Source: Minisyncoccia bacterium | GTDB lineage: Bacteria > Patescibacteriota > Minisyncoccia > Phycocordibacterales > Phycocordibacteraceae | Direction of reading: 5' to 3' | Assembly: GCA_038228545.1 (NCBI GenBank) | Contig: JBBRPE010000003.1 | Location: 442-64,441 of the forward strand | Length of the DNA: 64,000 nucleotides | Shown here: in pieces, positions 30,906-63,796 of the stretch | Position numbering within the stretch: the first letter of the stretch is position 1 | How the letters are laid out: every line of letters begins with the position of its first letter | Made by a program: the position numbers and the translations under genes | Notes under the pieces: generated by a model | The model's database searches: none | Told to the model about the DNA's origin: nothing | The model's input: the letters and a program-made list of their open reading frames with translations, nothing else

Positions 30906-31739
30906 ATGTCTAATCTCAACAGGGCGTTGAGGCTTGCCCTCAGCGCCACCGTCGCCATGTCAATTCTGGCGAACGCGGCTAACGCCCAAAGCGTTCCGCA
31001 GGTTCCGAGTGGAGGAGCGGCATCCGTCGTTTCCCAGTCGACTTCGCAAGAAGCGGCTTCGGCCGCCTACGTCACGCTTGCGGAACGGACGGCACCTTGC
31101 CGTTCGAACGCCACCTACTGCATCGAGCCGCGTCCGGCCCGACCGTCGACCATCGACGGCACGAGCCCGACCGTCACTCCGACGGAATGGATGCGGGATT
31201 ATCCCCGTTCGGGAATGGCCGGCTACAACCGGATAGCGAGGGCGAACCAGGCCCTCTGCTCCACTGCTGACGAATACGTCGCGGGTCTCAGGACCCTCGA
31301 CCAGCTCTTCGTCAGCGCCGGAAACGAGTACCAGTTAATTCAGGACGTCTATAACGACCTTCCTGATGCGATTCGCCGCAACGCCCGAGTGATGATTGCC
31401 ACGCAAGCGGTGCAAGCCGGTCTGCTGTGCCTTCTCTCGTTCGGCACGTACTGCATCGCGGTGGTTGTCGGCGCCGCGGGCAACATCATGACTACGCACA
31501 CTAACGAGCGTATCCAGCTGACTTCGGTCCAGCTGGCGCTCGCGAACATCGTGGTCACGAAGCTCAACATCTGGTCGAATCGTCTGACGATTCGACTGGA
31601 CAACCTGTGGCTGAAGGACTGGCTTCCGAACTGCGAGGGGCTGGGGTATCACATCAACTTCACTCTCCCGCCGCTCGGCCCGCCGCCGTCGGTTCCGGAA
31701 GGCTTCGGCCAACCGGCGCTCCCTGCCGGTCACCACTAG
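30906..31739 (+). CDS. Secreted/membrane-anchored hypothetical protein, anomalously GC-rich (~62% vs ~50% elsewhere)
   Basis: Signal peptide MSNLNRALRLALSATVAMSILANAANAQS, an internal hydrophobic segment, a Pro-rich C-terminus. Third codon positions are strongly G/C-biased, unlike neighbouring genes. Confidence 0.7.
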   Translation: MSNLNRALRLALSATVAMSILANAANAQSVPQVPSGGAASVVSQSTSQEAASAAYVTLAERTAPCRSNATYCIEPRPARPSTIDGTSPTVTPTEWMRDYPRSGMAGYNRIARANQALCSTADEYVAGLRTLDQLFVSAGNEYQLIQDVYNDLPDAIRRNARVMIATQAVQAGLLCLLSFGTYCIAVVVGAAGNIMTTHTNERIQLTSVQLALANIVVTKLNIWSNRLTIRLDNLWLKDWLPNCEGLGYHINFTLPPLGPPPSVPEGFGQPALPAGHH

Positions 31740-31825: not shown

Positions 31826-32404
31826 TTACTGACCTATTTTAACAAGCTCAACTTCAAAGATAAGTGTTGCGTTCGGTGGGATTACTCCTCCTGCGCCCTG
31901 CGCCCCATAGCCAAAGTCTGGTGGGATAACGAGCTTGCGCTTACCGCCAACTTTCATACCAACCAAGCCCTGATCCCAGCCCTTGATGACCTGGCCTGCG
32001 CCAAGCTGAAACTGGAATGCTTGTCCGTGCTTTGCAGACGCGTCGAAGACCGTGCCATCAGGAAGCATGCCGACGTAATTCATGGTGAGAACGTCGCCTG
32101 CCTTAGCTGTTGCACCTGTGCCGACCACTTCATCGCTCACGGTAAGTGTTGTCGGAAGCGGTCCTTGGATAGGACCACCATGAGCTGTGGTAGGTGCTTG
32201 AGCGGAGCTGCCGGATTGTACGGGATGACCGGATATATCGAGAGAATCGGATGATGATGCCATAGTATTTTGTGAAGCTGCGTCTGTTGTCGTGGCCGTC
32301 GTAGCGTGCCCAAATGGTCGCAAAACGCTGGGCCCCAAAAACAGGAAGGCAACCGCGACGACCACGGCGAGAGTGACGGCGACGGCTGTTGCAGTGATGT
32401 TCAT
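31826..32404 (-). CDS. FKBP-type peptidyl-prolyl cis-trans isomerase, membrane-anchored/secreted
   Basis: An N-terminal TM/signal segment and a C-terminal FKBP domain ([31 protein letters not shown]...[10 protein letters not shown]). Confidence 0.85.
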
Positions 32405-32414
32405 ATGCTAGCTA

Positions 32415-32714
32415 TTATTTTGTAACCGCAAGTATATCATCTGCGAGGCTTTCCACCGTCTCTGCAAGAGCGAGGTCGGCCTGTGGTACTTTTTTCTCGA
32501 GGAATTGAGCCATTTTCTCCTCGCTCGCTCCGCTCTTGACCAGTTCATACCAGGCAGCGCGCGTGGGCTCGTTCATTCGCTCTATCGTGCGCACAACTGC
32601 GCCGCGGAAGATAAGTGAGTTGAGCTCGAGAACAAACTTTTCCTGATCTTCGACAGAAAGCTCGCTGAAGTCTACGGAATCCAGTATGGAGTTGTAGGAA
32701 GTGGTAACGTTCAT
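32415..32714 (-). CDS. Hypothetical 99-aa acidic protein, distal gene of the VirB4-like operon
   Basis: It starts 3 nt after the stop of the 1120-aa ORF on the same strand. No motif recognised. Confidence 0.5.
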   Translation of the reverse strand: MNVTTSYNSILDSVDFSELSVEDQEKFVLELNSLIFRGAVVRTIERMNEPTRAAWYELVKSGASEEKMAQFLEKKVPQADLALAETVESLADDILAVTK

Positions 32715-32716
32715 GC

Positions 32717-35700
32717 TTAGCTGACTACACTACTAAAAGTACCCGGCGACGGAATGTGATTAAGTTGTGTTGCTGGGTCGGTAAGGCCGTTGAGCAAGCT
32801 CGAGTGACCCTGACCATCACCCGTGACGGTCGCTGTGTAACGGAATATTCCCTGCTCTGCCAGGTCGGGTCGTTGTGCAAACAGTGTCTCTGGATTTCCT
32901 TCCACACTCACGCGCACCGGAGTACTCTGACTCGCTGCAAATCGTTGCGCGAACGAATGCAGTTCGTCGTACGACTTACCTCCCCATGCATGCAAGGTGC
33001 CGTACGTATCAGAGTAGATATGCGGAACGCGCGAATCAACGGTAATGGAATTTGCATTTGTAAATCGCGCCGGATACTCGCTCATGAGGTTGTGGCGCAA
33101 GTCGAACGACGATGGATGTACTACAGACGAATCCGTGCCCGGCGCAGGAGAAGTTTCTGGGGGCGCCGTGGATGCGGAATCAGGAGTAGCACTCGGTACT
33201 GCGTGTAAACGCTCATCAAGTGTCATATATCCACTTCCACTAGAATCTGCAGGTGCGTCTGGTGACTGTTCGAGAGTTGGTGGCGACTCGATACCAGTAG
33301 TTGCGGACTCCGCTGCTGGAGTCTCGGAGACCACTGCTGACGTAGGTGACTCGTGTGTGGGGTGGGGTCCGTTATGATGTGCACCGGAAGCGTGCGTAGC
33401 GCGCAGTTCAACATGCGGCTGGTCATGGGTAACTACGGCACCCTGCGGTGATTCTTGCATCACCGTATAGGGGTCACCATGCGCCGGAGTGAAGGTGAGT
33501 GTATGGCCGTCAGGTGAAAGCGTAAGGGTATCGCCCGGGTGGACGAGTGCACTTGTGACCGTATGCGAAGCTGGATCGAAATGTTCAAATCCGGTGGCGC
33601 GCGCGAACTGGTCTACATTATGAAACTCAAACATCTTCTGTACGAGTGGTGGTGGTGTGCTACCGGCTGGATATTGATGATGGAGCTGACGCAACATATC
33701 GGCATACATATGCGTCGCACCCTCCCCGGCTTTAATTTCGTGATGAAAACCTCCCACCTGTGATTCGGGTGCACCCGGTGTGGCTGATTGAGCTTCAGGG
33801 GAAACAGAGTGTCCGGCAGAATCTTGCGAATGCACGTCGTGTACATTTGTATCACTTGGCGCAGAAGCATCAGGATGTCCCGGTACTTCTTGTGCATGGT
33901 GCGTACCTGCCGGCGCAATTGTAGGAGTTTCCGAATGTGTAGCGGAGTGCGCAGTTGTCGAATGAAGCTCAGGACCTCCATGTGTACTGGCGGCATGAGT
34001 CGTTACCGAGTGCTCAAGCGACGTGACGCCGTGCGGTATGTGCGAACCGACTGCACTAAAACCTTCCGCTGAGAGGGCACCTGCTCCTACGCCTGCAGCA
34101 ATACCTCCAACGGCGCTTCCGGTAGAGCGGAGTCTCGCATTGCGCTCAAGGGTTGCTGCAGCACCCTGACGACTCTTTGAGAGAGTTTCGAAGTAATTGG
34201 CATCGCGCAAATCGCCTACTTCACGTTTTTTAAGCGTTGCTTCCGCGTTCTGCGAAGATTTTTTTTGTGCAGTTTCGATACCTTTTCCGGTGAGCCACCC
34301 GCCGATACCCGCTGCACTCCACCACTTTGCATTACTCGAGAGTTTCGCGTGAGCATCTGTATCGCCCCGTTCCAGAGCCCCCTGTGCCCGTAGTCGCTGC
34401 ACGGCGCCAATAGAAGCGACGCCAAGTGCCGAACCGGAAAGGAGAGCAGCCGCACCTATGCCGCCCGTAAGCGTACCGAATGCAAATCCAGCAACACCGA
34501 GTGCGCTTCCCAAAATAATTTTTTTCTTGGGATCCATGCCGTTATAAGCCTTAAACAATTTGTCGGCCAAGTGTCGGTCTCGTAGAGCGAGTCCTTCCAT
34601 ACGTGCACGTTGCTCTGATTCCTCTGCGCCAAACACCGCTGCCTTTACTACATACATACGCTGATAACGTTCGCGCATAACCTCACCGTACTGCTTCCCC
34701 TTATTAGGACCTGCCTGAATTACCTCGTCCAGGTGACGGTCCTGTCGTGCAGCTGAGCCCCGACCCTCACGTCGTTCCTGTATGGAATCGAGAAGTGTCC
34801 GAGCGTGCATGACTCGCGTTGCGACCCACTGCCTGCGTGCAAGCTGTACCTCATCCGGGAGTTTATCTTGATTTCCTTTTTGTAATCCAAGACGTTCGCC
34901 GAGTGCACCTAAAAAGCCACGGTTCTGTTGGTGAGCTTTAAGCAAATCGAAATATGTTTCTTTATATGCTTTTTCCGTATCGATAGTCGGGTCATAGAAG
35001 TCCTTTTTAAAGGTTTCGTTGGCTGTTTGCTTAGTACTCCGACGCTCTGCACGGGCTGCAGCTTCCTGTACACTCACCGTCGGTCCTTCAGGAAGCGTAT
35101 TCGAAGCGATAACAGGTGAAGGATAGTGCGGTTCACCTGTATAGACCTCACTAGCGACAACACCGACATCTGACTGCGGAGAGTATTTATCGAGAAGTGC
35201 CTGCAACTTTGCTTTGTATTCTGCTTTTGAATTCGGGCTCGGTTCGTTACTTTCAAAGTCCCTCTTCAAAGTAAGTAAGTCCTCTCTCAGTGCGTTATCG
35301 GCAACCGGTTCTTCGTGTTCTGATTGTGCGTTTTGTTCCACCACGGCTGCACCTCCAGCCTCTGGAGAGACTGCATCAGGAGCGGTTTTCTGCTCGTCAC
35401 TTCGTAAGTCAGGCAGTGCAATAACGTCTGGAGCAGTATCTACTGAAGTAGGTGCTTCCTCGTCGAATGGCACATCTGTACTTCCATCTTCCGGAGTACT
35501 ACGGTCTGACGACTCTGGTCGCGGTTTAGTTCGCTTCTGTACTTCACGTTTTGCAATAACAGTCTGTCTCGCGAGTCTGTCTTCATGTTCCTGTGTTTGC
35601 GCTGCCTTTTCGCGCTCAAGTGCACCTTGTAACTTTCCGGCTTGATCAAGGAGCTGATCACGCTCTTCGCGCTTCATACTTCGTGCAGCTTTTCTTTCCA

Positions 35701-36079
35701 CCTCAGGGAGGGTCGCTTCTGTTTCCCGTATAATTTTTCTGTTTCGTGTCAGCTTTTGAACTGCGTCTGGCAATTTTTCACGTATATTTTTCTCCACTCC
35801 ATCCACTATCGCTTGTTCACTCGCTTCAACACGAGCACGATTGTCAGCAATTGCTTTTGCTTCGTCCTCACGCTGTTTGCGTCTATAGAAAGCAACTCTA
35901 TCCGCGCGACCAATTTTATTCGCTACTTCAGGAATCGTATCAATTAACTGCTCAGCAGACATCTCGGTCGATGTGTTTGTAGCCTTACGCACCTGCTCTG
36001 CGCGTATAGCCTTCGTTAGTTCCTTGGTCTTGGCTCCAAGTTCTTTACTTCGTGGCGTTCGTTCCATTCCTCGAGACAT
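32717..36079 (-). CDS. Giant (1120 aa) bitopic protein: charged coiled-coil N-half, central Gly/Ala-rich TM pair, His/Pro/Thr/Ser-rich low-complexity C-half
   Basis: A single uninterrupted ORF. Central hydrophobic segment ILGSALGVAGFAFGTLTGGIGAAALLSGSALGVASIGAV. The C-terminal region is rich in HxxH/TH/SP repeats (HGVTSLEHSVTTHAASTHGGPELHSTTAHSATHSETPT...). It starts 11 nt after the VirB4-like stop. Confidence 0.8.
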   Translation of the reverse strand: MSRGMERTPRSKELGAKTKELTKAIRAEQVRKATNTSTEMSAEQLIDTIPEVANKIGRADRVAFYRRKQREDEAKAIADNRARVEASEQAIVDGVEKNIREKLPDAVQKLTRNRKIIRETEATLPEVERKAARSMKREERDQLLDQAGKLQGALEREKAAQTQEHEDRLARQTVIAKREVQKRTKPRPESSDRSTPEDGSTDVPFDEEAPTSVDTAPDVIALPDLRSDEQKTAPDAVSPEAGGAAVVEQNAQSEHEEPVADNALREDLLTLKRDFESNEPSPNSKAEYKAKLQALLDKYSPQSDVGVVASEVYTGEPHYPSPVIASNTLPEGPTVSVQEAAARAERRSTKQTANETFKKDFYDPTIDTEKAYKETYFDLLKAHQQNRGFLGALGERLGLQKGNQDKLPDEVQLARRQWVATRVMHARTLLDSIQERREGRGSAARQDRHLDEVIQAGPNKGKQYGEVMRERYQRMYVVKAAVFGAEESEQRARMEGLALRDRHLADKLFKAYNGMDPKKKIILGSALGVAGFAFGTLTGGIGAAALLSGSALGVASIGAVQRLRAQGALERGDTDAHAKLSSNAKWWSAAGIGGWLTGKGIETAQKKSSQNAEATLKKREVGDLRDANYFETLSKSRQGAAATLERNARLRSTGSAVGGIAAGVGAGALSAEGFSAVGSHIPHGVTSLEHSVTTHAASTHGGPELHSTTAHSATHSETPTIAPAGTHHAQEVPGHPDASAPSDTNVHDVHSQDSAGHSVSPEAQSATPGAPESQVGGFHHEIKAGEGATHMYADMLRQLHHQYPAGSTPPPLVQKMFEFHNVDQFARATGFEHFDPASHTVTSALVHPGDTLTLSPDGHTLTFTPAHGDPYTVMQESPQGAVVTHDQPHVELRATHASGAHHNGPHPTHESPTSAVVSETPAAESATTGIESPPTLEQSPDAPADSSGSGYMTLDERLHAVPSATPDSASTAPPETSPAPGTDSSVVHPSSFDLRHNLMSEYPARFTNANSITVDSRVPHIYSDTYGTLHAWGGKSYDELHSFAQRFAASQSTPVRVSVEGNPETLFAQRPDLAEQGIFRYTATVTGDGQGHSSLLNGLTDPATQLNHIPSPGTFSSVVS

Positions 36080-36089
36080 AGCAAGTGTA

Positions 36090-38819
36090 TTACGAAAGAT
36101 AACGGGCCTTAATCATTGATTCAACTGTAGCACGGTCACGACCGTAGGTAAGGTAGGAAAGCTCACGCAAGTCATCTATTTGCGCAGGATTCCCTGCAAC
36201 GGGAGGAAGTGTCTGAATGTTAAACGGCTTTTGCGGAACACCTCCTGCAAGAATTTTTACGTATGCGTTGTAATTCTCTATCGACGTAAAATCGCCGGCT
36301 TTAAAGACCGGAGCAAACTGCTTCTCAAAGAATTCGCCGTCTTCCTGACCAACACGGAATATCGACATGGAGCCAACGTTTCCGAATACGGCGTTTCGTG
36401 TCTTTTCATCCACCTGTGAGAGGAATTGATGCGCGATAGTCAGTGAAAGTTTGTATTTACGTGCCTCGGAAAGAATGCTCGGAATAGAATCCGTCGTGAT
36501 GTTCTGGAATTCATCTATATACAGGTAGAACGGCGCAAAATCTCCACGTGGATTGTCCGCGCGTGAAAGTGCCGCCATAAAGAGCTTGCCCACAAGGATA
36601 AGGCCGAGCAGGTTTGCATTGCGCTCGCCGAGGCGACCCTTTGAGAGATTTACCAGCAATATTTTCTTATTGTCTATGACATCACGGAACTGGAAGGATG
36701 ATTGCTGTTGGCCAATGATAGGGCGCATGAAATCGTTCGCCGTGAAGTCGTCGAACTTGTTCGTAATGTACGGAACGATGTTGGCGAGCGAGGCTTCCCC
36801 TTCCGCTTGTGTCGCTATTTCATTCCAGAACTGGTTCACAATCGGATTCATCGATTTCGAAAGCTTGTAGTCTCGGAATGGCTTATTTGAAAGCACACGA
36901 CCAATGTCCATCAGCGTTGAGCCGGATGCCGGGTCTTCCATGACGAGGAGGGTGGCATTGCGGAAGTACTGCTCAAATGCCGGCCCCATACTTTCCGGTA
37001 CATCACCGTACAATCTTCGGAAAATCGCGAGTAACTCATTCACGATAAACGTTTTTTGTTCAGGACGTGACGCATCGTACTCGAGCAGATTGAGTCCGAA
37101 TGGACGGGAGATTTCAGCGGGGTCGAAATAGATGACATCCTCAAAGCGCTCCGGCGGTATGTAGGAAAGCACATCGAGAATGTCGTTTCCGTGCGGGTCA
37201 ATGAAACAAACGCCGTTGCCAGCAGCAATATCCTGGGCAATAAGCGTCTTCATAAACGAGGTTTTACCGGTACCCGTTTGTCCTATGACGTAAAGATGAC
37301 GTAGACGGTCCTCAGGAGTGAGACGTATGCTGGTCTGTACTCCACGATAGTCGTTTGCACCAAGCACAATGCCGTCTTGCGGTAGCGCAGTCGGTGCCGG
37401 TGCGGAGGTAAAGCGCGACTGCGCAAGGTGCGGACTTGATTCGATTCCTTTAGGTGGGAAGTGGTACAGCGTCGTGAGCTCACGAATCGAAAGAGGCATA
37501 TCGCTTGCATCAGAAAAGAGACGGAAGGTAAAGTCACGAAAGAGTTTCTTCGCATCGCCTCGTTCTACATTCTTAAATTCAATGCGATTGCCAATAGTGT
37601 TTTCGAATTGATTAAAAGCGGCCGCTAACTCTGTTCTAATGGAATGTGCTTTTACCGCATCGGTGGAAGACACGACAATACGGATATTCGTTTCGACGAT
37701 AGGAGCCAGTATCTTCTTCTCCACCTGTTCAATCGCTACTTTGTCGGCGTGGGCTGGGTCAAGCGCTTTCTTTTGCGGACCTAAGAGTCCTATGGCTTCA
37801 CGGGCAAAATCGCCCACGAACGTTTCTGGAAGATTGAAAGCACGGGACCTATGTTCACCCTTACGGAGTTCTGCGAGTACTCGACGATAATGATCGGTAT
37901 AGTGGCTACCTCTCGGACGAATGAGTATCTGAAGCGATGCTCCTTCACCTTCCGCGTCAATCTTTGCGAACGCATTTAGAATTGAATTGAGCGGGTCATA
38001 GTCAAAGTCACCGTAGTCCTTGAGCGGCAGCATTGCTTTATCTTTTAGAGTCGCATACGCGCCAATCGAATTTCCGTCTTCGGTAAACACGTTATAGTCG
38101 TTGGGTTGGCCTTTGATGCGTGCATCAGGGAATATAGCGAGAAGCTGTTTCTCGAACAGGTCCTTCTTGCCGTTGGGCACGGACGCATAAAATTGAAGCG
38201 TTGGGGAATTTACCGGCACCGCGAGCTCGAGCGTGTAGTAGGGTGGCTCTTTAGCATCGGCTTGCTGTATGGACTGCATGCCGGAATAAAACTGCTCCAT
38301 TGCGGAAACCAATTCCTTGAGGGTTTTCGTCCGCGCATTGTTTCCTCCATCGGCTTCCGGTTCAGGAAGTGCTATTTCATAGAGCGTCATATGGAGTGCC
38401 TTCCATGTAGGCTGGCCTTCCGCAAGCCCGGTAGCCGTCATTCCGGAGATAATGTACTGGACGAGGAAACGATGGAAATCATCCTCAAGATGAGGATTAT
38501 TGAGCTTTTCAAGAACGCTGAATGCGTTCTTGATTCCCTTCTCCTCCATAATCCCGCGAAGCTCTTTAATAGTTTCGTCGTTTTGTTCCGGAGAGAGCGA
38601 GTCTGCGAGTTCGAGAAGTGCAGCGGGAGTAGCGCGATATTCGGGTGCGAGCACCGTATCAGGTGAAGTGCGATGTACCAGAATGCGCTCATGCGCTACT
38701 TCTTCGCGTGGTGCCGTCTCGCGCATCGAAGCAAGCTCAGCTTCTTTACGTGCAACTTCTGCGCGCAAATACGCAAGTTCATCCTCCGGACTAGCCAGTG
38801 GTCGTAGTGGGCCCTCCAT
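36090..38819 (-). CDS. VirB4/TrbE/TraE-family type IV secretion ATPase (AAA_10-like)
   Basis: ~910 aa. The non-ATPase N-terminal half has no TM helices. The C-terminal ATPase carries Walker A GQTGTGKTSF, Walker B FYLYIDEFQN, and TIAHQFLSQ...FGNVGSMSIFRVG motifs, the architecture typical of VirB4 rather than VirD4. Start placed at the MEGPLRP Met (38819), downstream of the terminator hairpin. Confidence 0.72.
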   Translation of the reverse strand: MEGPLRPLASPEDELAYLRAEVARKEAELASMRETAPREEVAHERILVHRTSPDTVLAPEYRATPAALLELADSLSPEQNDETIKELRGIMEEKGIKNAFSVLEKLNNPHLEDDFHRFLVQYIISGMTATGLAEGQPTWKALHMTLYEIALPEPEADGGNNARTKTLKELVSAMEQFYSGMQSIQQADAKEPPYYTLELAVPVNSPTLQFYASVPNGKKDLFEKQLLAIFPDARIKGQPNDYNVFTEDGNSIGAYATLKDKAMLPLKDYGDFDYDPLNSILNAFAKIDAEGEGASLQILIRPRGSHYTDHYRRVLAELRKGEHRSRAFNLPETFVGDFAREAIGLLGPQKKALDPAHADKVAIEQVEKKILAPIVETNIRIVVSSTDAVKAHSIRTELAAAFNQFENTIGNRIEFKNVERGDAKKLFRDFTFRLFSDASDMPLSIRELTTLYHFPPKGIESSPHLAQSRFTSAPAPTALPQDGIVLGANDYRGVQTSIRLTPEDRLRHLYVIGQTGTGKTSFMKTLIAQDIAAGNGVCFIDPHGNDILDVLSYIPPERFEDVIYFDPAEISRPFGLNLLEYDASRPEQKTFIVNELLAIFRRLYGDVPESMGPAFEQYFRNATLLVMEDPASGSTLMDIGRVLSNKPFRDYKLSKSMNPIVNQFWNEIATQAEGEASLANIVPYITNKFDDFTANDFMRPIIGQQQSSFQFRDVIDNKKILLVNLSKGRLGERNANLLGLILVGKLFMAALSRADNPRGDFAPFYLYIDEFQNITTDSIPSILSEARKYKLSLTIAHQFLSQVDEKTRNAVFGNVGSMSIFRVGQEDGEFFEKQFAPVFKAGDFTSIENYNAYVKILAGGVPQKPFNIQTLPPVAGNPAQIDDLRELSYLTYGRDRATVESMIKARYLS

Positions 38820-38868
38820 ACGTTTGAGTATACGATACGAAATATCACGTAAACAGATACGTATGGAT

Positions 38869-38899
38869 AAAAAGAGACGCACATGATGCGTCTCTTTTT
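38869..38899. terminator. Bidirectional rho-independent terminator
   Basis: AAAAA-gagacgca-catga-tgcgtctc-TTTTT, symmetric A/T runs flanking a perfect 8-bp stem. Confidence 0.8.
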
Positions 38900-38911
38900 A
38901 CAAGGCGAAAT

Positions 38912-39259
38912 TTAGATTGAAGCGGACTGGCGTGTCATCATGCCGAAGAAAGCAGTCACGAGTGACACAACAATGGAAAAGAAGAATGCTGCCCAGAAAC
39001 CGTTCACATGGAAGCCAGGAACAATCATTGCAGCGAGCATGATGAGAAGCGCATTCACGACAAGTGAAAAGACCCCGAGCGTAACGATGTTAATCGGAAG
39101 AGTTAGGAGGTGGATTATCGGCTTGAAGAACACGTTAATGACGCCAAGGACGATAGCGAGCAAGGCAAGGCTAATGAGGGAGTCGTGTGTAACGCCCGGT
39201 ACGAGATATGCGGCGACGAGAATTGCTAAAAACGATACTACCCAGTGGATGAGAGTCAT
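38912..39259 (-). CDS. Phage-holin-family-4 / DUF360-like small membrane protein
   Basis: 115 aa with 4 TM helices. The pattern LVAAYLVPGV...VNVFFKPIIHLLTLPINIVTLG is characteristic of the Phage_holin_4_2/DUF360 family. Confidence 0.65.
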   Translation of the reverse strand: MTLIHWVVSFLAILVAAYLVPGVTHDSLISLALLAIVLGVINVFFKPIIHLLTLPINIVTLGVFSLVVNALLIMLAAMIVPGFHVNGFWAAFFFSIVVSLVTAFFGMMTRQSASI

Positions 39260-39334: not shown

Positions 39335-40417
39335 CTACGGGTGAAGGAAAAAGGCAACGGCCATAATGACGTACGCAATAAGCAACTGGAACCCTTCGAA
39401 CCACGTGCTTTCTCCGTCCTCAACCACGGCATTCGTGACAAATACCGCAAAAATAATTGAGGCAAGTTCAAACAAATCGAAAACGAGATTCATGGGCTGT
39501 CCGAGGAACAAGCTAACGAGTACAAGCACCGGCGCAACGAACATAACCACCTGCGTAGCAGACCCGACCGCAATCTGAATCGAAAGATCCATTTTGTTTT
39601 TAATTGCAGCAGTAACTGCAGAGAAGTGCTCGGCGACATTTCCTACTATTGCCACGACGATGACTCCAATAAATAGCTGTGTCCAACCGAATTGCGCAAC
39701 AACTGGCGTAATCGAACCCACCAGTATTTCAGAAAGAACGGAGACCGCGACCGTAGCGCCGAGCAGAATGATAACGCTCATGCGGGCACTCCACTTCGGC
39801 GCAATGGAGCGTTCATCTTCTTCTTCGCCTTTATAGAGATGTTTGTGCGTATGTAGTGTGAAGAGGAGATTTGCACCGTACGCAGCAATCATAAGAATTG
39901 CCACGAGTACGGAGAGTGGCTCTATATTGCCCGTATTACCCTTTCCATCAGTTGCAAGAAATATGGCCGGCACCACAAGCGCGGTAGTTGCAAGAAGTAG
40001 CATCGAGCAGGCCGCTTTAGCGGCCGTCGCATTGAAGTGCTGCCGTTCGCGTTTACGCCCTCCCAAAAACATGGCGGTACCGAGTACAAACAAAAGATTA
40101 CCGAGAATAGCACCAGTGATAGTCGCCTTCGCCACTTCTACAAGCCCAGCCTGAATGGCAAAAATAGAAACGATGAGTTCAGTCGCATTCCCGAATGTTG
40201 CATTCAAAAGACCGCCAATAGCGGGATTGGTACGAAGTGCCAAGTCTTCCGTCGCGTCACCAATATATTTAGCAAGCGGAATCATTGCTGCTGCGGACAA
40301 AAGAAACACGGTCAGCGCAGAGAAATGGAAATAATCCGCAGCGAGCGCAAGCGGAGTGAGGAGTAAGAGGCCGGAAAATAGCTTGCCGATCACGCTATCA
40401 GTATACCAGGACGCCAA
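39335..40417 (-). CDS. cax: Ca2+/H+ antiporter (CaCA family)
   Basis: Two alpha-repeat motifs (LLNATFGNATELIVSIFA and GNVAEHFSAV), 360 aa, about 11 TM helices. Confidence 0.9.
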   Translation of the reverse strand: MASWYTDSVIGKLFSGLLLLTPLALAADYFHFSALTVFLLSAAAMIPLAKYIGDATEDLALRTNPAIGGLLNATFGNATELIVSIFAIQAGLVEVAKATITGAILGNLLFVLGTAMFLGGRKRERQHFNATAAKAACSMLLLATTALVVPAIFLATDGKGNTGNIEPLSVLVAILMIAAYGANLLFTLHTHKHLYKGEEEDERSIAPKWSARMSVIILLGATVAVSVLSEILVGSITPVVAQFGWTQLFIGVIVVAIVGNVAEHFSAVTAAIKNKMDLSIQIAVGSATQVVMFVAPVLVLVSLFLGQPMNLVFDLFELASIIFAVFVTNAVVEDGESTWFEGFQLLIAYVIMAVAFFLHP

Positions 40418-40423
40418 TGCTCG

Positions 40424-41131
40424 CTAGCGGACAAAGGTGAAGCTTTTAAGGGTTGCCTCGAGGGCTGTATAGGAGGCGTCCAACTTTGCCTGTGGTATGT
40501 CAGCTTTGCTTACGGGGTCGTCGCGATAACTAGAACCGGTCTTAATCTGTTCAAGTGCGATACAGGTGCCATTACGAAGTGTTCGATAACTAACGCCCTG
40601 TACGTACTGCATCATAGCCGCGTCCTGGAAGCTAAAGACTTTCCACGTCGCTCCGCCGAACACCGCGTCAGGAAGTGCTACTTCTGCCTGGGCAGTTGCT
40701 GCCGTTTCGCAACGGGCCAGCTCCTTTGGGTCGTTGCTTGCACCAATGCGAATTTCAGCATCAAAGTAACGTGGATAGGAATGGTCTGACTGTGCTCGCT
40801 CACCGATTATGGAAATAATTGGCGTCCCCGTTCCCTCGGGAAGTGCATTCTCGCGCCAATTCGCCGGCAAATGATAAAACGATGTGAATGTGTAGTCCGT
40901 ACGATATGTTTCAGGGTAGGTAATGGTGAATCCGTGCTCGCCGTCGGTAAATATAGCTTTACCCGTAAGGTTCGGTGTTGAGGACGCTGTTTGGTTTGCG
41001 GTGATTGCCTGGTGGTGAGATACCACCATAAAAAGGGCCGCAGCAATGCCGATAACCATAACAAGTCCGAGAACGATGAGGGAATTCTTAGTCATACGTA
41101 CAGTATATTGCGTTTGCACTCGCGTCACCAC
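40424..41131 (-). CDS. Hypothetical membrane-anchored/secreted protein
   Basis: N-terminal TM (LIVLGLVMVIGIAAALFMVV) then a soluble domain. An alternative start lies at the internal Met (41095). Confidence 0.55.
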   Translation of the reverse strand: MVTRVQTQYTVRMTKNSLIVLGLVMVIGIAAALFMVVSHHQAITANQTASSTPNLTGKAIFTDGEHGFTITYPETYRTDYTFTSFYHLPANWRENALPEGTGTPIISIIGERAQSDHSYPRYFDAEIRIGASNDPKELARCETAATAQAEVALPDAVFGGATWKVFSFQDAAMMQYVQGVSYRTLRNGTCIALEQIKTGSSYRDDPVSKADIPQAKLDASYTALEATLKSFTFVR

Positions 41132-41155: not shown

Positions 41156-42139
41156 TTACTGCGTAAGACTGGAAGAGCCATCAAGCATCTGCGTTCTATT
41201 TATATCGCTCTGCGACGCTGCAGTATGCGGGATAGCGACATCCGTCTTTGATGTAAACGCATTAGACGAAGTAAACAGGTGTCCACGGAACGTAGTGCTT
41301 GCAGTGAGGTGCAGGTCGCGCGGTATCCGAACTGTTGTTCGAGCTCTAACTGCATTCGGCGTACTTGAGCTTGTCGAAGCATTCTTCGTCATGGCGGCCA
41401 TAGTACGGACAGCGGAAGGCTCTGTTGAAGTCGCACTACCGTTACCCGTGTCGTTCGAAGACGCGAGTATGGCATCGGTAACGGATGTTGTGTTTGCTAT
41501 ATCCTGCGACGTAGCAACCACAATACGTAGGAGACCGGCACTTTCCTCGGAATCGTTTGTTGTAACAGCTCCAAGTGCCTGTGCTTCTCCGGCGAGGTTT
41601 GCGGCGAGGTTTGCCTTTATGGTCTCGGCTCCCGCAGTGTCTCCGGTAGAGGCAAGTTCGTCCGCTTTCTTCGCGGCATTCTTGATACGAACAGCAAATT
41701 CAGTAGCAAGATAGGTTTGACGGTCTGTAGTGAGCGTTCCGCGCGACGCGAGTGTAACCGCTTCGTCTACACGACGGGTTGCAAGTTCTGCCGCAACCTT
41801 CGCCTGACCGGACGCGGTCGGCGCAAGTGCCGTCATGACCGGTTCATTTATATGTATTTTAAGTGCGTAAAGTGCATCTCCAGGAGCACTCGTGTCCGCG
41901 GCAAGCGTGACACCTCCACCAAGAGTAACGACCAGCATAAGGCCGAGAGCATATGCCGGAAAACGGCGCGACATGATAAAGCTAAAGATGCCGCTGTAAG
42001 CGCTACTAGTTTGAAGTGCTTCGGAAGCAATGTGCATATCCGTATACAGCACAAGACGCTCTCGCATAGCGAGGCGTTCATTACTCGAAAGGGTGATTCC
42101 CTTCAGTCGGTTTAGAAATGTGGTGGTGAAATCATTCAT
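41156..42139 (-). CDS. Putative anti-sigma factor / DUF5667-like membrane protein
   Basis: It overlaps the ECF sigma gene stop by 8 nt and lies immediately downstream. One TM (YALGLMLVVTLGGGVTLA) and an Ala/Thr-rich extracytoplasmic domain. Confidence 0.55.
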   Translation of the reverse strand: MNDFTTTFLNRLKGITLSSNERLAMRERLVLYTDMHIASEALQTSSAYSGIFSFIMSRRFPAYALGLMLVVTLGGGVTLAADTSAPGDALYALKIHINEPVMTALAPTASGQAKVAAELATRRVDEAVTLASRGTLTTDRQTYLATEFAVRIKNAAKKADELASTGDTAGAETIKANLAANLAGEAQALGAVTTNDSEESAGLLRIVVATSQDIANTTSVTDAILASSNDTGNGSATSTEPSAVRTMAAMTKNASTSSSTPNAVRARTTVRIPRDLHLTASTTFRGHLFTSSNAFTSKTDVAIPHTAASQSDINRTQMLDGSSSLTQ

Positions 42140-42638
42140 GGACGTGTAGGCGCTCTTGAACTTTCTTTAGTGCGCGGTTGATACGAACTGAAACAGCGTT
42201 TGCGGTCTCTCCTGTTATCTCTGCAATATCTTTAGGTGACATGCCCTCAACAAAACGCAGGGTGAGTGCTTCACGTGACGGCTCATCGAGGTCTCGAACG
42301 ACATCGAGGACTTCGCGCATTTCGGCATGTTCGGAAATCTTCTTGTGGTCGTCTCCGGCAAATTCGAAACCTTCATCCGTGAGCATGTCGAGTGACTGTT
42401 CCCTCTTTTTTCGGTACCAGTCAATTATGAGATTGCGGGCAATGGTATACAGGAGTGCCCTCTCATTTCCAATGTCGGTACCAAGGCGAAGCTGCTGCCA
42501 GAAGCGCATAAATGCGTCCTGAGTAATGTCCTGGGCCACTTCGCGTCCAGAGACCTTCATGGTACAGAAACGAAAAATATCGTCAGCGTACCGGTCATAG
42601 GCCGCTAGGAATTGCTCTTTTGTCTCGTCTTGGTCCAT
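42132..42638 (-). CDS. ECF-type RNA polymerase sigma-70 factor
   Basis: Region 2 (AQDITQDAFMRFWQQL...LYTIARNLIIDWYRKK) and region 4 HTH (MSPKDIAEITGETANAVSVRINRALKKV), 168 aa. Confidence 0.9.
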   Translation of the reverse strand: MDQDETKEQFLAAYDRYADDIFRFCTMKVSGREVAQDITQDAFMRFWQQLRLGTDIGNERALLYTIARNLIIDWYRKKREQSLDMLTDEGFEFAGDDHKKISEHAEMREVLDVVRDLDEPSREALTLRFVEGMSPKDIAEITGETANAVSVRINRALKKVQERLHVHE

Positions 42639-48236: not shown

Positions 48237-49241
48237 TTAATTAATTTCAATATCTACATACGTCACCTGCGGAAACTCCTCTCGTATACTTTTTTCAATC
48301 TCAGCAATACGGTTACCGACAAGACGCGGAATACGGTCGGTGGTACGGAACATGAGCTTCGTGAATTCTTTGAAATCGTCCTTGATATTATCGAATTCGT
48401 CCTGGAGGTCGCCCGCCTCGTATATCTCCTCGTAGAGCGGAGAACCATTCCATTCAACGGCGGCGAAGATTCGATACTTATTCAAATCAACAGCTGCAGA
48501 CTTGAATTCAATAACCTTTTCAACACATGAATCTTTTTCAAGAGCCTCAATAAGCTCGTCCACAATATCTTCATGCAAGGGCATGCCGATAATATATTTG
48601 TGATTCTTTATGATGAGTAGAATTGCCAGGAACCCAAGTATGAGACCCACGGCTATACCACCCAGTGAGTCGTACACTGCATTTCCGGTTATGTAGGTAA
48701 GCCACTGGGCAATAAGAGCAAACAGAACACCAAGCACGGCGACACTGTCTTCATAGACGACAGCAAGAAGTACCGGGTCGCCATCGGAAAAAAGTTCGAC
48801 GGTGAGATTTCCTCCATTTCGCAATTCGTTCACCGCAAGAAACAACGTCATACCCTCTATGAGGAGCGCTACCAAAAGTACGAGAACGCTCAGTGTGCTG
48901 AATACCGGCGCTTGGTGGCTTACCTGGAGCAAGGATTCGATAGAGTGGTAGAGAGAAATACCCGCGCCAATGAATAACACACCGCACGCGGACACGAGCG
49001 ACCAAAAGAAGCGCTCAATACCATAACCGTAGCCATGAATGTCGTCGGCGGGTCGCTTAGAGCGCTGAATTCCTATGAGGAGGAGCGACTGATTGAGTGT
49101 GTCTGCAATACTATGGACGCTTTCCGCAAACATACTCGCCGAGCCGGTAGCGATTGCCACGACGGTTTTTATGATGGTTATAAATACATTGCCACTAAGA
49201 GCGGCAATGACCGATACTTTTCCTTGGGCGTGTTTGCTCAC
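48237..49241 (-). CDS. Cation diffusion facilitator family metal efflux transporter
   Basis: 6 TM helices with SVHSIADTLNQ and HGYGYGIERF motifs, plus a C-terminal cytoplasmic domain. 334 aa. Confidence 0.9.
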   Translation of the reverse strand: MSKHAQGKVSVIAALSGNVFITIIKTVVAIATGSASMFAESVHSIADTLNQSLLLIGIQRSKRPADDIHGYGYGIERFFWSLVSACGVLFIGAGISLYHSIESLLQVSHQAPVFSTLSVLVLLVALLIEGMTLFLAVNELRNGGNLTVELFSDGDPVLLAVVYEDSVAVLGVLFALIAQWLTYITGNAVYDSLGGIAVGLILGFLAILLIIKNHKYIIGMPLHEDIVDELIEALEKDSCVEKVIEFKSAAVDLNKYRIFAAVEWNGSPLYEEIYEAGDLQDEFDNIKDDFKEFTKLMFRTTDRIPRLVGNRIAEIEKSIREEFPQVTYVDIEIN

Positions 49242-51675: not shown

Positions 51676-52614
51676 CTACTTAAGTCTACAGGCAACTTTG
51701 AGCGCTGCCACGTCATCGGTCGAAAGCGTGACACCGTCTTTATTGTACGGGAACATTATGGACACCGGATTTTGATTGTGTACGAGACTGAGCGAGTGAC
51801 CAAGCTCATGTGCGAGCGAGTGCAAAAGCTCTGATTGGTTCTTATACGCATAGATATCAATATGCGTCTTTCCATTTGCGTCTCGTACAAAAAGACCCTC
51901 TTCGAAGTCGCCGCTTGCACTTGAATTGAAAGAAGTCACCACCTTATTTATATCTTTCACACGTGCGTTGTAGGTATCTATTTTCTGCTTAAGCTCGGTC
52001 GCTTGTGCATCAAGCTGAGCCCCTTCAGTACGTAGGTCTGATTGCTGTGACTTCAGACTGGCCTGCTCAGACTGTAGTCGCGCGTAGGTTTCCTTGTCTG
52101 CCCCACCTGCGGCATTTACGCGTTGTACCTCTGTTGAATAGCTAGCGCTTGCAGAATTAAAATCAGCAACTGCACTTCCATATGACTGTTGTGCGCTTAC
52201 GTAGTGGCGCTGTGCTGCATCAAGCGACGAACGCTCTGCGGACTGTGAGGCTTCTGTTGAATCAATCGATTTACCGAGTTCAACGGTCTGTTGACGCACG
52301 TCATAGACAAAATTTATCGGCATCGCCTGTGGGTTATCAGGTGCGTATACGAGAACGCTCTTCCCTGCGGCGCTATTCCAGAGGCCGGCACCATCCGCGA
52401 GCTTTGCAACAACTTGCGCCCTCGTAAGGGAGAAACGGGGATCAATGGTTCCTATCGTATAGGGTAACGGCGATGTACAAGGAGCAAAGAATGAAGCAAT
52501 TGCTTCTGACGAAACACGAACGAGGTCTATCGGTTGTTCGTGAAAATACAGTCCGGCGCCGACAAGTACTACAAATGCAGCTCCTGCAACAATGTAGGGT
52601 CTGTATATATTCAT
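51676..52614 (-). CDS. Membrane-anchored metzincin/matrixin-like zinc metalloprotease with coiled-coil linker
   Basis: N-terminal TM, a Gln/Ser/Ala-rich coiled-coil region, and a C-terminal HELGHSLSLVH (HExxHxxGxxH) zincin motif. Confidence 0.8.
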   Translation of the reverse strand: MNIYRPYIVAGAAFVVLVGAGLYFHEQPIDLVRVSSEAIASFFAPCTSPLPYTIGTIDPRFSLTRAQVVAKLADGAGLWNSAAGKSVLVYAPDNPQAMPINFVYDVRQQTVELGKSIDSTEASQSAERSSLDAAQRHYVSAQQSYGSAVADFNSASASYSTEVQRVNAAGGADKETYARLQSEQASLKSQQSDLRTEGAQLDAQATELKQKIDTYNARVKDINKVVTSFNSSASGDFEEGLFVRDANGKTHIDIYAYKNQSELLHSLAHELGHSLSLVHNQNPVSIMFPYNKDGVTLSTDDVAALKVACRLK

Positions 52615-63640: not shown

Positions 63641-63694
63641 TGTAGCACCAGCAGGCGCTTTACTATCACGCTGTGCGTGAGTACGATGAGGAAA

Positions 63695-63775
63695 TTGCCG
63701 GGGTGGTGGAATGGTATACACGGTGGATTCAAAACCCGCTGCCGCAAGGCTTGAGAGTTCGAGTCTCTCCCCCGG
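63695..63775 (+). tRNA. tRNA-Leu (anticodon CAA), class II with long variable arm
   Basis: GCCGGGGUGGUGGAAUGGUAUACACGGUGGAUUCAAAACCCGCUGCCGCAAGGCUUGAGAGUUCGAGUCUCUCCCCGGCA. Perfect 7-bp acceptor, A73, anticodon loop UUCAAAA, variable stem-loop GCC-GCAA-GGC, T-arm GAGAG/UUCGAGU/CUCUC. CCA is not encoded. Confidence 0.88.
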
Positions 63776-63796
63776 CACAGATTTAAGCGAAGCTAA

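Follow-up and report, generated by a model that had tools for sequence, protein, structure and literature searches.

The 64,000-nucleotide stretch of DNA analysed here (the window) carries a four-gene minus-strand operon encoding a P-loop ATPase, a protein of 1120 amino acids (the giant protein), a 99-residue DUF5663-family protein, and an FKBP foldase anchored in the membrane. The ATPase is soluble and free of transmembrane (TM) helices, and within the FtsK-HerA superfamily it falls in the type IV coupling-protein (T4CP) branch (VirD4/TraG/TraD-like). Its gene, which resides off mobile elements, belongs to the highly conserved chromosomal core of the Paceibacteria (members of the Candidate Phyla Radiation, CPR, with small genomes); the four-gene operon is a feature of the window's own lineage, the Kaiserbacteria and relatives. 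Taking identity and proposed mechanism together, we put the probability at roughly 0.5 that this is a T4CP-like motor exapted to work with lineage-specific partners. The partners of this conserved TM-less coupling-like ATPase have a joint role that is undescribed in the literature searched; as an earlier interpretation made from the sequence alone (the sequence-only reading) had surmised, the set is uncharacterised there, with no mention of DUF5663 or of DUF8128, the N-terminal domain of the ATPase.

Organization of the operon

The operon begins just past a hairpin terminator and runs from the ATPase (36090-38819) through the giant protein (32717-36079) and the DUF5663 protein (32415-32714) to the FKBP (31826-32404), with intergenic spacings of 10, 2, and 10 nt; these genes, and all features below except the hairpin, to which no strand is assigned, lie on the minus strand. 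The gene after FKBP is convergent, and the unit therefore comprises four genes; the sequence-only reading had correctly recognized the first three as co-directional and closely spaced, but missed the FKBP. Gaps of 2-10 nt and the lack of any internal terminator suggest that the genes are co-transcribed.

The strong hairpin that had been pointed out at 38869-38899 can be read directly from the sequence as a perfect 13-bp, bidirectional terminator-like element, AAAAAGAGACGCA-TCATG-TGCGTCTCTTTTT, with flanking A and T runs, located between the ATPase start and a holin-like gene. It is absent from the output of a consensus terminator scan, which probably passed over it for want of a free T-tail, as the A and T runs pair with each other. 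The holin-like gene (38912-39259) encodes a 115-residue, four-TM membrane protein that, in agreement with the earlier description, belongs to the Phage_holin_4_2 family (Pfam PF04020, 8.6e-31, 107 bits); it is a syntenic neighbor that precedes the ATPase at most loci of the same clade, is set apart from the operon by the terminator, and probably does not belong to the unit. Everything identified by Pfam scans of about 45 window ORFs was housekeeping, with no match for VirB3, VirB6, VirB8, relaxase, or pilin; UvrA, UvrB, UvrC, and TGT are encoded near the operon. The sequence-only reading was thus right that VirB6, relaxase, and pilin are missing from the window, but not that VirD4 is, since the ATPase itself is VirD4-like.

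A soluble coupling-protein-like ATPase

Counted from its ATG, the ATPase is 909 residues long (homologues, 905-912); an alternative, longer GTG start at 38882 falls within the hairpin. The N-terminal half (residues 1 to about 480; 37380-38819) consists of a CPR-specific helical extension up to about residue 190, followed by an alpha/beta DUF8128 domain (PF26449, precomputed on the identical protein; secondary structure from the model) that is common to phage and plasmid homologues, whose alignments begin at residues ~165-200. The previously noted Walker A GQTGTGKTS (residues 513-521; 37257-37283) and Walker B YLYIDEFQ (residues 765-772; 36504-36527) are present in the translation and invariant in 129 homologues (G513, Q514, T515, G516, G518, and K519; F764, Y765, D769, E770, F771, and Q772), so the protein is most likely an active ATP-driven motor, and its structural relatives suggest that it may form a ring-shaped hexamer. 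The most hydrophobic 19-mer (residues 734-752) forms a helix in the core of the ATPase fold; hence hydropathy and model bear out the absence of TM helices that had been remarked for the N-terminal half, and extend it to the whole protein.

The ATPase lies within the VirB4/VirD4/HerA branch of P-loop translocases. The sequence-only reading took it for a VirB4-family assembly ATPase that would join the small protein and the giant protein (a channel or adhesin in this view) in a reduced, self-contained type IV secretion-like machine. Three observations speak for this: i) the best Foldseek E-values in the PDB are to full-length TrwK/VirB4 (1.7e-14 over ~900 columns); ii) the ATPase shares the VirB4 build, a soluble N-terminal domain of ~480 residues and a RecA-type C-terminal domain with no TM helix; and iii) the trio is tightly packed and co-occurring. 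Fold comparison of the model does not tell VirB4 from VirD4, however, so that this structural intuition is unrefuted at the level of fold; at the level of sequence we reject VirB4 identity. With the VirB4 model TIGR00929, whose cut-off is 643 bits, the protein reaches 16 bits, over the P-loop only, and every profile whose match extends farther represents a T4CP family (TraG-D_C, T4SS-DNA_transf, and the CD1115 VirD4-like model). The T4CP scores are weak overall: Pfam gives DUF87 at 2.9e-6 and TraG-D_C at 3.7e-5 (24.1 bits versus a cut-off of 22, the only T4CP profile to exceed its threshold), with weaker matches to TrwB_AAD_bind and T4SS-DNA_transf, and the best NCBIfam models are TraD (far under cut-offs) and CD1115 VirD4-like (residues 681-847). 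For homologues that are 51-55% identical, the precomputed domains include TrwB_AAD_bind, T4SS-DNA_transf, and TraG-D_C. Of the three Pfam families that the sequence-only reading had named as a check on 36090-38819, T4SS-DNA_transf is therefore found, weakly, and CagE_TrbE_VirB and AAA_10 give no match in the profile search.

Homologues on mobile elements also argue against VirB4 identity. On a B. subtilis plasmid the homologue (BLASTP 1e-26 over residues 193-897 of the ATPase) is followed by a relaxase-family gene, TcpC, TcpE, and an AAA_10 VirB4 (4e-83); on an Embleya plasmid the order is PrgI, an unscanned 'ATP-binding protein', the homologue, a relaxase-family gene, and NlpC/P60. Homologues of the same two-domain build thus fill the coupling-protein slot on both plasmids, adjoining the relaxase, and the VirB4 position is occupied by a separate ATPase (AAA_10 in Bacillus, the unscanned protein in Embleya). 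Phage homologues align along their full length (Foldseek gp156, 1.7e-41; phage JL homologue, TM-score 0.59 over 840 columns), and phrog_5156 matches the ATPase at 1.4e-68.

The partner proteins

The giant protein is charged over residues 1-518 (35% K/R/D/E). A Gly/Ala-rich hydrophobic block of 43 residues follows (residues 519-562; 34394-34525; hydropathy peaking at 1.65), long enough for a TM hairpin and Lys/Arg-rich on both sides, and a second, weaker Gly/Ala-rich segment (residues 653-678; 34046-34123; hydropathy 1.2) is a candidate third TM helix that would put the C-terminal half outside the cell; homologues have a TM segment 80-100 residues past the first block. The C-terminal 430 residues (691-1120; 32720-34009) are of low complexity (His 8.6%, S+T+P 33%, Lys 0.7%) and contain two semi-conserved modules in alignments. 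Composition and hydropathy agree with the charged N-terminal half, Gly/Ala-rich TM pair, and His/Ser/Thr/Pro-rich C-terminal half already described. The positive-inside pattern and the 0.7% Lys indicate an outward-facing C-terminal half; from hydropathy and charge alone, the charged N-terminal region is predicted to be cytoplasmic and the C-terminal half probably lies outside the cell.

A core HMM and all-against-all phmmer comparisons define the conserved core of this fast-evolving family as a membrane-proximal helical domain plus the TM segments (residues 350-720; 33920-35032), which matches only 67 cluster representatives among 1.84 billion. The most conserved columns (residues 338-500) are predicted to be cytoplasmic, and Y376, W418, R422, R471, R474, E489, L497, and R500 are near-invariant. 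Giant proteins retain 16-24% identity where the ATPase retains about 81-82%.

The third gene encodes an acidic (pI 4.43), soluble protein whose PF18908 match (4.2e-4, 21.3 bits) is slightly under the 23.7-bit cut-off; its orthologues have the DUF5663 domain, and a family HMM finds a match after the giant protein in 51 loci. The fourth and last encodes a 192-residue FKBP-type prolyl isomerase (FKBP_C, 3.2e-36) with an N-terminal TM anchor (hydropathy 2.72 at residues 5-23) and a Ser/Thr-rich linker, and so probably resides on the outer face of the membrane. Of 80 related loci, 66 have FKBP after the ATPase locus; the gap between the ATPase and FKBP genes ranges from 42 nt to 4.4 kb.

Distribution and gene neighborhoods

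The ATPase is encoded by at least 583 GTDB species representatives, comprises more than 2000 clusters at 90% identity, and is 62-85% identical across the order, a distribution far wider than that of its two partners. In each clade it is flanked by housekeeping genes (SecY-Adk-Map upstream; NDK and a beta-CASP nuclease downstream; MreB, PyrH, and pol III delta'), with SecY-Adk-Map before and NDK after in ~36 of 80 metagenome loci. Neither VirB3, VirB6, VirB8, nor any other channel component adjoins the ATPase in ~160 loci, and no secretion-system genes were found within 7-10 kb of it in any locus examined. The relatives C7867-004, C7867-001, and C7867-007 are recorded with VirB4 (PMC12102498 Table S1), and the Paceibacteria VirB4 is near dnaA (PMC12102498), a different locus from the ATPase operon. 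With no adjoining channel gene, an ATPase that persists in whole clades without partners, and a VirB4 elsewhere in relatives, we reject a self-contained minimal type IV secretion system, which we regard as very improbable; the observations of the sequence-only reading are confirmed, and its interpretation is partly supported.

Co-occurrence of the trio in related genomes, which that reading had proposed as a test, is indeed seen: of 66 related species, 45 have the giant-protein and DUF5663 genes after the ATPase, 17 lack the two (in 10 the gap holds no gene, in 7 a different ORF not matched by the family HMM), and just 4 encode a single one of them. At least three lineages (L008, L069, and the clade around L042) have lost both partners and retain an ATPase that is 63-81% identical, and most of the SecY-Adk-Map clade has the ATPase without these neighbors. 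Since the ATPase is retained without them, the giant protein is not an obligatory anchor.

Such persistence raises an alternative in which there is no functional trio, the ATPase being a housekeeping nucleic-acid translocase (FtsK/HerA-like, for chromosome handling, DNA uptake, or repair) and the giant protein and DUF5663 an unrelated, rapidly diversifying surface cassette that by chance occupies a variable spot flanked by two conserved genes. The housekeeping flanks, the nearby Uvr and TGT genes, the high ATPase identity where the pair is missing, and the variable ATPase-FKBP gap are all as expected, and yet we judge this unlikely, if a serious contender, because i) the ATPase adjoins either the pair or DUF5663 plus some other large protein among differing flanks, as in L145 (MreB, ATPase, a 1106-residue giant homologue at 6.7e-13, and a 98-residue protein with a DUF5663 HMM match of 1e-5 and no Pfam match), L138 (DUF5663 by Pfam, 3e-5), L165 (a 1155-residue TM protein and DUF5663 at 4e-12, on the opposite, upstream side), and L087 (ATPase, DUF5663, NDK), the giant protein and DUF5663 recurring in two rearranged contexts, which is more than inherited gene order alone would give; ii) the operon is tightly spaced with no internal terminator; iii) in ~2.7 Mb of ATPase-centered loci every DUF5663 match lies within ~4.5 kb of the ATPase; and iv) HerA normally has a NurA-like partner, and none is adjacent to the ATPase.

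Possible mechanism and relation to known coupling proteins

For the exapted motor we propose, tentatively and at well below even odds for the mechanism by itself, that the pre-TM cytoplasmic helical domain of the giant protein, the single part of it that is well conserved, would hold the soluble motor at the membrane, supplying in trans the anchor that canonical VirD4 has in cis; that DUF5663, small and acidic, might serve the motor as adaptor or regulator; that the Pro-rich, His-rich C-terminal half of the giant protein would be surface-exposed and diversifying fast; and that FKBP could assist its folding at the cell surface.

[quoted passage not shown] The gene after the ATPase in plasmid and phage homologues is a substrate, the relaxase; a Patescibacteria genome carries about two VirD4-like genes, mostly distant from virB4, and the secretion systems of these bacteria mostly lack relaxases (PMC12102498); the small acidic partner resembles secretion chaperones or adaptors; the pair is dispensable where the ATPase is retained, which suits a client better than an anchor; and extreme divergence is typical of host-contacting effectors. 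We nevertheless find this improbable: what the giant protein conserves best is not a terminal export signal but an internal, cytoplasmic domain with TM segments, Sec/YidC could insert an N-in/C-out protein with no need of a coupling protein, no locus has secretion-system genes within 7-10 kb, and in Southlakia (Saccharimonadia) the VirD4-like gene is non-essential but the secretion-system genes are essential (PMC12102498).

Small adaptors or regulators are familiar for other coupling proteins (TraM, IcmS/IcmW, and CagZ). A TM anchor and an adjoining relaxase gene are typical of canonical coupling proteins; the window's ATPase has neither, a point against the exapted-motor reading. Phage 'coupling ATPases' of the SPO1 gp27.4 type are homologues of the ATPase, and gp27.4 is itself described as a TM-less, VirD4-like coupling ATPase that adjoins a relaxase (PMC3357382).

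Operon structure and genomic context

The locus is a tightly packed unit of four genes, all on the minus strand. The first encodes the 909-aa ATPase (36090-38819); its ORF extends to a GTG at 38882, a start that we rejected because it lies inside a perfect terminator hairpin and all homologues are 905-912 aa long, which leaves the ATG at 38819 as the true start. The gene for the 1120-aa giant membrane protein (32717-36079) starts 10 nt downstream of the ATPase gene, the gene for a 99-aa acidic DUF5663 protein (32415-32714) follows after 2 nt, and that for a 192-aa FKBP-type prolyl isomerase (31826-32404; FKBP_C, 3.2e-36) after another 10 nt. A reading made from the sequence alone had described a three-gene set; those three genes are present, but the closely following FKBP gene was missed. 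Because the gene after FKBP is convergent, we take the unit to comprise four genes. The protein convergent on the operon end (30906-31739, plus strand; 277 aa) has a TM segment at its C-terminus as well as a signal peptide, and matches no family. In the FKBP itself, sequence and hydropathy show an N-terminal TM anchor together with a Ser/Thr-rich linker, which points to a probable location on the outer face of the membrane.

The hairpin, AAAAAGAGACGCA-TCATG-TGCGTCTCTTTTT at 38869-38899, is perfect and separates the operon from a gene encoding a four-TM Phage_holin_4_2 protein (PF04020; 8.6e-31, 107 bits against a cut-off of 28.8). The context of this gene is chromosomal housekeeping with no sign of phage. 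The sequence-only reading was accurate in its observations: the ORFs, the ATPase motifs and lack of TM helices in its N-terminal half, the hairpin, and the holin-like gene all hold. Elsewhere the window encodes F-type ATP synthase, UvrA/B/C, Ddl, TGT, topoisomerase I, RelA/SpoT, SerRS, DNA polymerase III gamma/tau, and ParB, and Pfam scans of its 64 kb found no secretion-system parts, VirB3, VirB6, and VirB8 being absent. An integrated mobile element was rejected, given the even GC content, a gene order kept across species, and no integrase or relaxase; a defence system was likewise rejected, since the PADLOC matches (mad8 at 5e-13, DndH, HerA) arise through the shared ATPase domain alone and there is no defence-island context.

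Several other features of the window deserve mention. Three co-directional minus-strand genes encode a sigma-70 family protein (42132-42638), a DUF5667 protein (41156-42139), and a single-TM protein of 235 aa (40424-41131); this set is syntenic in two relatives (loci L001 and L004) and looks like a sigma/anti-sigma-like module typical of CPR bacteria. A 312-aa protein (51676-52614, minus strand) has a C-terminal matrixin-type (Peptidase_M10) zinc-protease domain, a family uncommon in small-genome bacteria. At the window end the longest ParB ORF (62630-63778, minus strand) overlaps a tRNA-Leu gene on the opposite strand (63697-63778, plus strand), so the true ParB start is probably further in; the presence of ParB suggests a replication origin not far past the window end.

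Family assignment of the ATPase

The catalytic motifs of the ATPase are intact, with Walker A, Walker B, and the motifs downstream of them invariant across 129 homologues, and the protein is soluble: no TM segment was found by hydropathy, the maximum of 1.53 being a core helix of the ATPase fold, and its plasmid and phage homologues likewise have none (hydropathy; PMC3357382). The sequence-only reading had placed this ATPase in the VirB4 family, and that assignment falls on sequence and gene context. The VirB4 model TIGR00929 reaches 16.1 bits against a cut-off of 643 and covers aa 529-560 only, VirB4_plasma reaches 20 bits over the P-loop only (cut-offs for such models being about 600), Pfam finds neither CagE_TrbE_VirB nor AAA_10, and no VirB3, VirB6, or VirB8 gene adjoins. 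The Pfam matches are instead DUF87, TraG-D_C (24.1 bits, cut-off 22), TrwB_AAD_bind, and T4SS-DNA_transf, and at the domain level its nucleotide-binding domain weakly matches the profiles of type IV coupling proteins (T4CPs; VirD4/TraG/TraD). TrwB_AAD_bind scores 18.9 bits in the window protein (cut-off 20.5), 24.4 in an orthologue (locus L083), and 37.8 in a Haladaptatus homologue, and more distant orthologues (51-55% identity) also bear TrwB_AAD_bind, T4SS-DNA_transf, and TraG-D_C. Among NCBIfam models, TraD and the VirD4-like model CD1115 (2.5e-9, aa 681-847) come out best, all NCBIfam scores lying far under the equivalog cut-offs. Profile comparison thus points to coupling proteins over VirB4. 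As for HerA and FtsK, no profile match came with the characteristic partner (NurA) or domains (FtsK gamma, TM domain). The N-terminal half is assigned to DUF8128 (PF26449) in the precomputed annotation of an identical database protein and of all listed homologues.

What identifies the protein as a DUF8128-type, coupling-protein-like ATPase without a TM helix is the genomic setting of its full-length homologues from other phyla. Specifically, i) PHROG 5156 aligns with aa 154-903 (1.4e-68), tblastn matches Bacillus phage G gp156, SPO1 gp27.4, and relatives over aa ~165-900, and predicted phage structures match over the whole length (1.7e-41; TM-score 0.59 across 840 columns); ii) SPO1 gp27.4 and 0305phi8-36 orf201 have been described as VirD4-like coupling ATPases which lack a TM N-domain and adjoin a relaxase (Pathria et al. 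2012, PMC3357382); iii) a B. subtilis plasmid homologue (BLASTP 1e-26, aa 193-897) is directly followed by a relaxase-family gene and, further downstream, by TcpC, TcpE, and an AAA_10 ATPase (4e-83) that is the VirB4 of the system; iv) an Embleya plasmid has the order PrgI, ATP-binding protein, homologue, relaxase-family gene, NlpC/P60; and v) a weakly AAA_10-like ATPase precedes the homologue on a Haladaptatus plasmid. The ancestry of the family lies in the coupling ATPases that serve conjugation in Gram-positive bacteria and archaea and that occur in the "DNA translocation operons" of SPO1-type phages. Two canonical coupling-protein features are missing, namely an N-terminal TM anchor and a relaxase neighbor; no Patescibacteria locus has the latter, which is found with the Bacillus and Embleya plasmid and SPO1-type phage homologues.

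Structure does not settle the matter. An earlier model built from 16 close homologues was unusable (pLDDT 49); a model based on 129 sequences from two clades reached pLDDT 82.6. Fold comparison of this model gave figures of 29.0 for the VirB4 C-domain (4ag5), 27.2 for DptH, 25.8 for TrwB, 25.1 for HerA, and 23.1 for DotL. The best Foldseek E-values were for full-length TrwK/VirB4 (1.7e-14), yet with TM-scores of just 0.30-0.33, and TrwB matches the ATPase domain with a target-normalised TM-score of 0.64. The model also predicts a helical insertion of eight helices (aa 588-716) between Walker A and Walker B. As far as the model goes, fold alone does not decide between VirB4 and a coupling protein; size and fold suggest VirB4, but sequence and gene context say coupling protein, and it is this annotation trap that we correct here. 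The ATPase is best regarded as a predicted coupling-type motor and classed as neither VirD4 nor VirB4 proper.

Conservation and gene neighborhoods of the ATPase

Rather than belonging to a mobile module, the ATPase gene is part of the strongly conserved core of Paceibacteria. With each species represented by a single genome, relatives were found in at least 583 genomes; the protein database contains upwards of 2000 clusters when grouped at 90% identity, and identity across the order of the window is 62-85%. Going by the database names of its homologues, the organism itself belongs to Paceibacteria (Parcubacteria), close to Kaiserbacteria. In the clade of the window the order is holin-like gene, ATPase, variable gap, FKBP, TGT, UvrB. 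A second large clade has the ATPase immediately downstream of the ribosomal spc operon, with SecY, Adk, Map, ATPase, NDK, DUF2238, and beta-CASP nuclease in about 36 of 80 loci; this placement (L086, L087, and ~36 of L088-L167; for example L086 4584-11475), beside enzymes of nucleotide metabolism, is unusual for a conjugation-type ATPase. In a third (L115, L138-L142, and L145; for example L138 5818-6831), MreB directly precedes the ATPase. The phage "DNA translocation operon" of 0305phi8-36 and SPO1, with its homologous coupling ATPase, also holds an MreB-like gene (PMC3357382), which may be coincidence or may reflect a common membrane-attachment partner. No VirB3, VirB6, VirB8, relaxase, or integrase gene was found near the ATPase at any locus, whether by clustering and Pfam scans of recurrent neighbor families (metagenome loci) or by targeted searches (genome loci). 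Several public bins with a Paceibacteria ATPase locus (L008, L009, L011, and others) go under the name "uncultured Candidatus Saccharibacteria" or "Bacillota bacterium"; at odds with the gene content, such names are probably wrong.

The giant protein, DUF5663, and their association with the ATPase

The composition of the giant protein is as the sequence-only reading described it, with a charged N-half, a Gly/Ala-rich block, and a His/Ser/Thr/Pro-rich C-half: 35% of residues are charged in aa 1-518, a Gly/Ala-rich hydrophobic block of 43 aa lies at aa 519-562 and a weaker hydrophobic segment at aa 653-678, and the last 430 aa contain 8.6% His, 33% Ser+Thr+Pro, and 0.7% Lys. Nothing matches in Pfam, NCBIfam, PADLOC, or PHROGs, and a PDB profile search gave chance-level matches only. 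A word-indexed search found one homologue; an exhaustive search of 1.84 billion cluster representatives found only 67 matching the family core (aa 350-720). The layout is common to every member: the N-region is charged and spans 120-760 aa, one to three TM segments come next, and the C-region, 250-650 aa long, contains 5-9% His in about half of the proteins. Extremely divergent as it is, the protein has a conserved membrane-adjacent cytoplasmic domain, the best-conserved columns (Y376, W418, R422, R471, R474, E489, L497, R500) lying in a helical region before the TM block. In the nearest relatives, identity to the window protein is 81-82% for the ATPase, 70-79% for the holin-like protein, 63-67% for FKBP, and 55-65% for DUF5663, against only 16-24% of residues for the giant protein, which evolves several-fold faster than its neighbors. 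Cation transporters lie near it, a Ca2+/H+ exchanger (39335-40417, minus strand) just upstream of the holin-like gene and a cation-efflux (CDF) protein (48237-49241, minus strand), with VIT1 in relatives (L001 6129-6845); given these neighbors and the His-rich C-regions, metal binding by the C-half is conceivable.

The 99-aa protein scores 21.3 bits against PF18908 (cut-off 23.7; E 4.2e-4) and 1.5e-37 against a DUF5663 family HMM, and its orthologues in L002 and L003 bear the precomputed domain; a PDB profile search returned designed-repeat and other chance matches only.

The giant protein and DUF5663 tend to be present or absent together. Among 66 species-representative loci containing both ATPase and FKBP, the gap between these two genes holds a giant-family gene and DUF5663 in 45, DUF5663 with a broken large ORF in 2, a giant-family gene only in 2, and another ORF of 446-795 aa without DUF5663 in 7; in the remaining 10 it is empty (42-423 nt), and as these form one clade and two singletons on the ATPase tree, there were at least three losses. 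The interpretation offered by the sequence-only reading stands in part: the trio does co-occur, in those 45 of 66 loci, but the ATPase fails both the sequence and the context tests for VirB4, and the trio is not a minimal type IV secretion system. Shorter proteins (583-797 aa) occupy the giant position in L010, L011, L013, L025, L026, and L028, two small clades on the ATPase tree from which the DUF5663 gene is missing; all have a single TM segment except that of L025, in which a hydropathy scan finds none.

The partnership also recurs in different contexts. L145 has MreB, ATPase, a 1106-aa homologue of the giant protein (6.7e-13), and a 98-aa protein (DUF5663 family HMM 1e-5; no Pfam match); L138 has ATPase, a 531-aa protein, and DUF5663 (Pfam 3e-5, 24.8 bits); L165 has the pair upstream, as a 1155-aa TM protein, DUF5663 (4e-12, 46.9 bits), a 123-aa protein, and ATPase; and L087 has ATPase, a 53-aa protein, DUF5663, and NDK. 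Among these more distant large neighbors only that of L145 is clearly homologous to the giant protein, profile-profile comparison with the giant family giving 27 columns at 67% probability for L165 and nothing significant for L133 and L138. In L133 (10196-15739) and L136 (10242-15572) a 1776-1847-aa giant protein that has two TM segments lies after the ATPase and a ~540-aa five-TM protein before it, neither of which has a Pfam match or detectable similarity to the window giant protein.

A proposed mode of action and a possible role in exchange with host cells

In the model that we favor, the giant protein would have its N-terminus inside and its C-half outside, as suggested by the charge pattern, the scarcity of Lys in the C-half, and the hydrophobic segments, read as a TM hairpin and one further TM helix; its conserved cytoplasmic domain would dock the motor at the membrane, DUF5663 would act as an acidic adaptor or regulator, and FKBP would aid folding of the exposed Pro-rich half. 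Patescibacteria depend on other cells, and the ways in which they exchange material with them are poorly known. A bolder and unlikely reading, with a probability of roughly one in eight, is that in Paceibacteria a conjugation-type coupling ATPase has been turned into a core translocation motor, independent of any type IV secretion system, which docks on hypervariable membrane partners exposed at the surface (the giant family, with DUF5663 as adaptor) and together with them makes up a new contact-site conduit for DNA, nucleotides, or proteins between episymbiont and host. If true, the conduit would be a machine without VirB4, VirB6, or relaxase.

We wish to emphasize that the main weakness of the docking model is the persistence of the ATPase at loci missing both partners, which makes the partners accessory. 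The same retention fits equally well with the giant protein and its neighbor being cargo plus chaperone, and is compatible with an unrelated cassette. A 2025 survey left thousands of "orphan" VirD4-like genes of the phylum unexplained; the present locus characterises one such family, the DUF8128 type, whose own partner set, made up of the giant membrane protein and the acidic DUF5663 protein, offers a testable entry to the role of exapted motors.

Comparison with known systems

Across 2,918 genomes of Patescibacteria that survey counted 5,713 VirD4-like homologues, just 148 of which lay near virB4, and its authors suggested that the orphans may have been exapted (Quinonero-Coronel et al. 2025, PMC12102498). 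By description the window gene fits these orphans; its DUF8128 subfamily, housekeeping neighborhood, and DUF5663/giant-protein partners are not described in that paper, and our literature search on DUF8128 and DUF5663 found no paper mentioning either. True VirB4 systems of Paceibacteria usually lie near dnaA or the replication origin (PMC12102498), and Table S1 of that paper lists three close relatives, C7867-004, C7867-001, and C7867-007 (loci L017, L021, and L028), as VirB4-positive.

VirB4 itself (TrwK of R388; the T. pseudethanolicus C-domain, 4ag5) has the same overall size, with a soluble N-domain and an ATPase C-domain, but the window ATPase has no profile match to it past the P-loop, reaches a global TM-score of just 0.30-0.33 with it, and lacks the adjoining VirB3, VirB6, and VirB8; moreover, DUF8128 homologues coexist with a separate ATPase in the VirB4 position of the same clusters. 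Canonical T4CPs (TrwB of R388, VirD4, TraD, DotL, Cag-beta) share with it the RecA-type nucleotide-binding domain; the helices modelled between Walker A and B may correspond to the helical insertion of T4CPs, and DUF5663 may be a counterpart of the small partners that T4CPs use (TraM, IcmS/IcmW, CagZ). They differ in that the window ATPase has a 480-aa soluble N-domain instead of a TM anchor, has no relaxase neighbor, is not plasmid-borne, and stays well short of the trusted NCBIfam cut-offs for TraD and VirD4.

Nearest to the window protein, among known systems, stand two groups of TM-less coupling ATPases, those of SPO1-type phages (SPO1 gp27.4, 0305phi8-36 orf201, and phage G gp156; PHROG 5156) and those of Gram-positive and archaeal plasmids (Bacillus, Embleya/Streptomyces, and haloarchaea), both having the same DUF8128-type alpha/beta N-domain and VirD4-like ATPase domain with no TM helix. 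Those relatives, at 20-29% identity, belong to mobile elements and adjoin a relaxase and usually a VirB4-type secretion cluster, whereas the window gene differs in being a chromosomal core gene among housekeeping genes with no relaxase, in its additional ~190-aa helical N-terminal extension, and in the giant membrane protein and DUF5663 that follow it.
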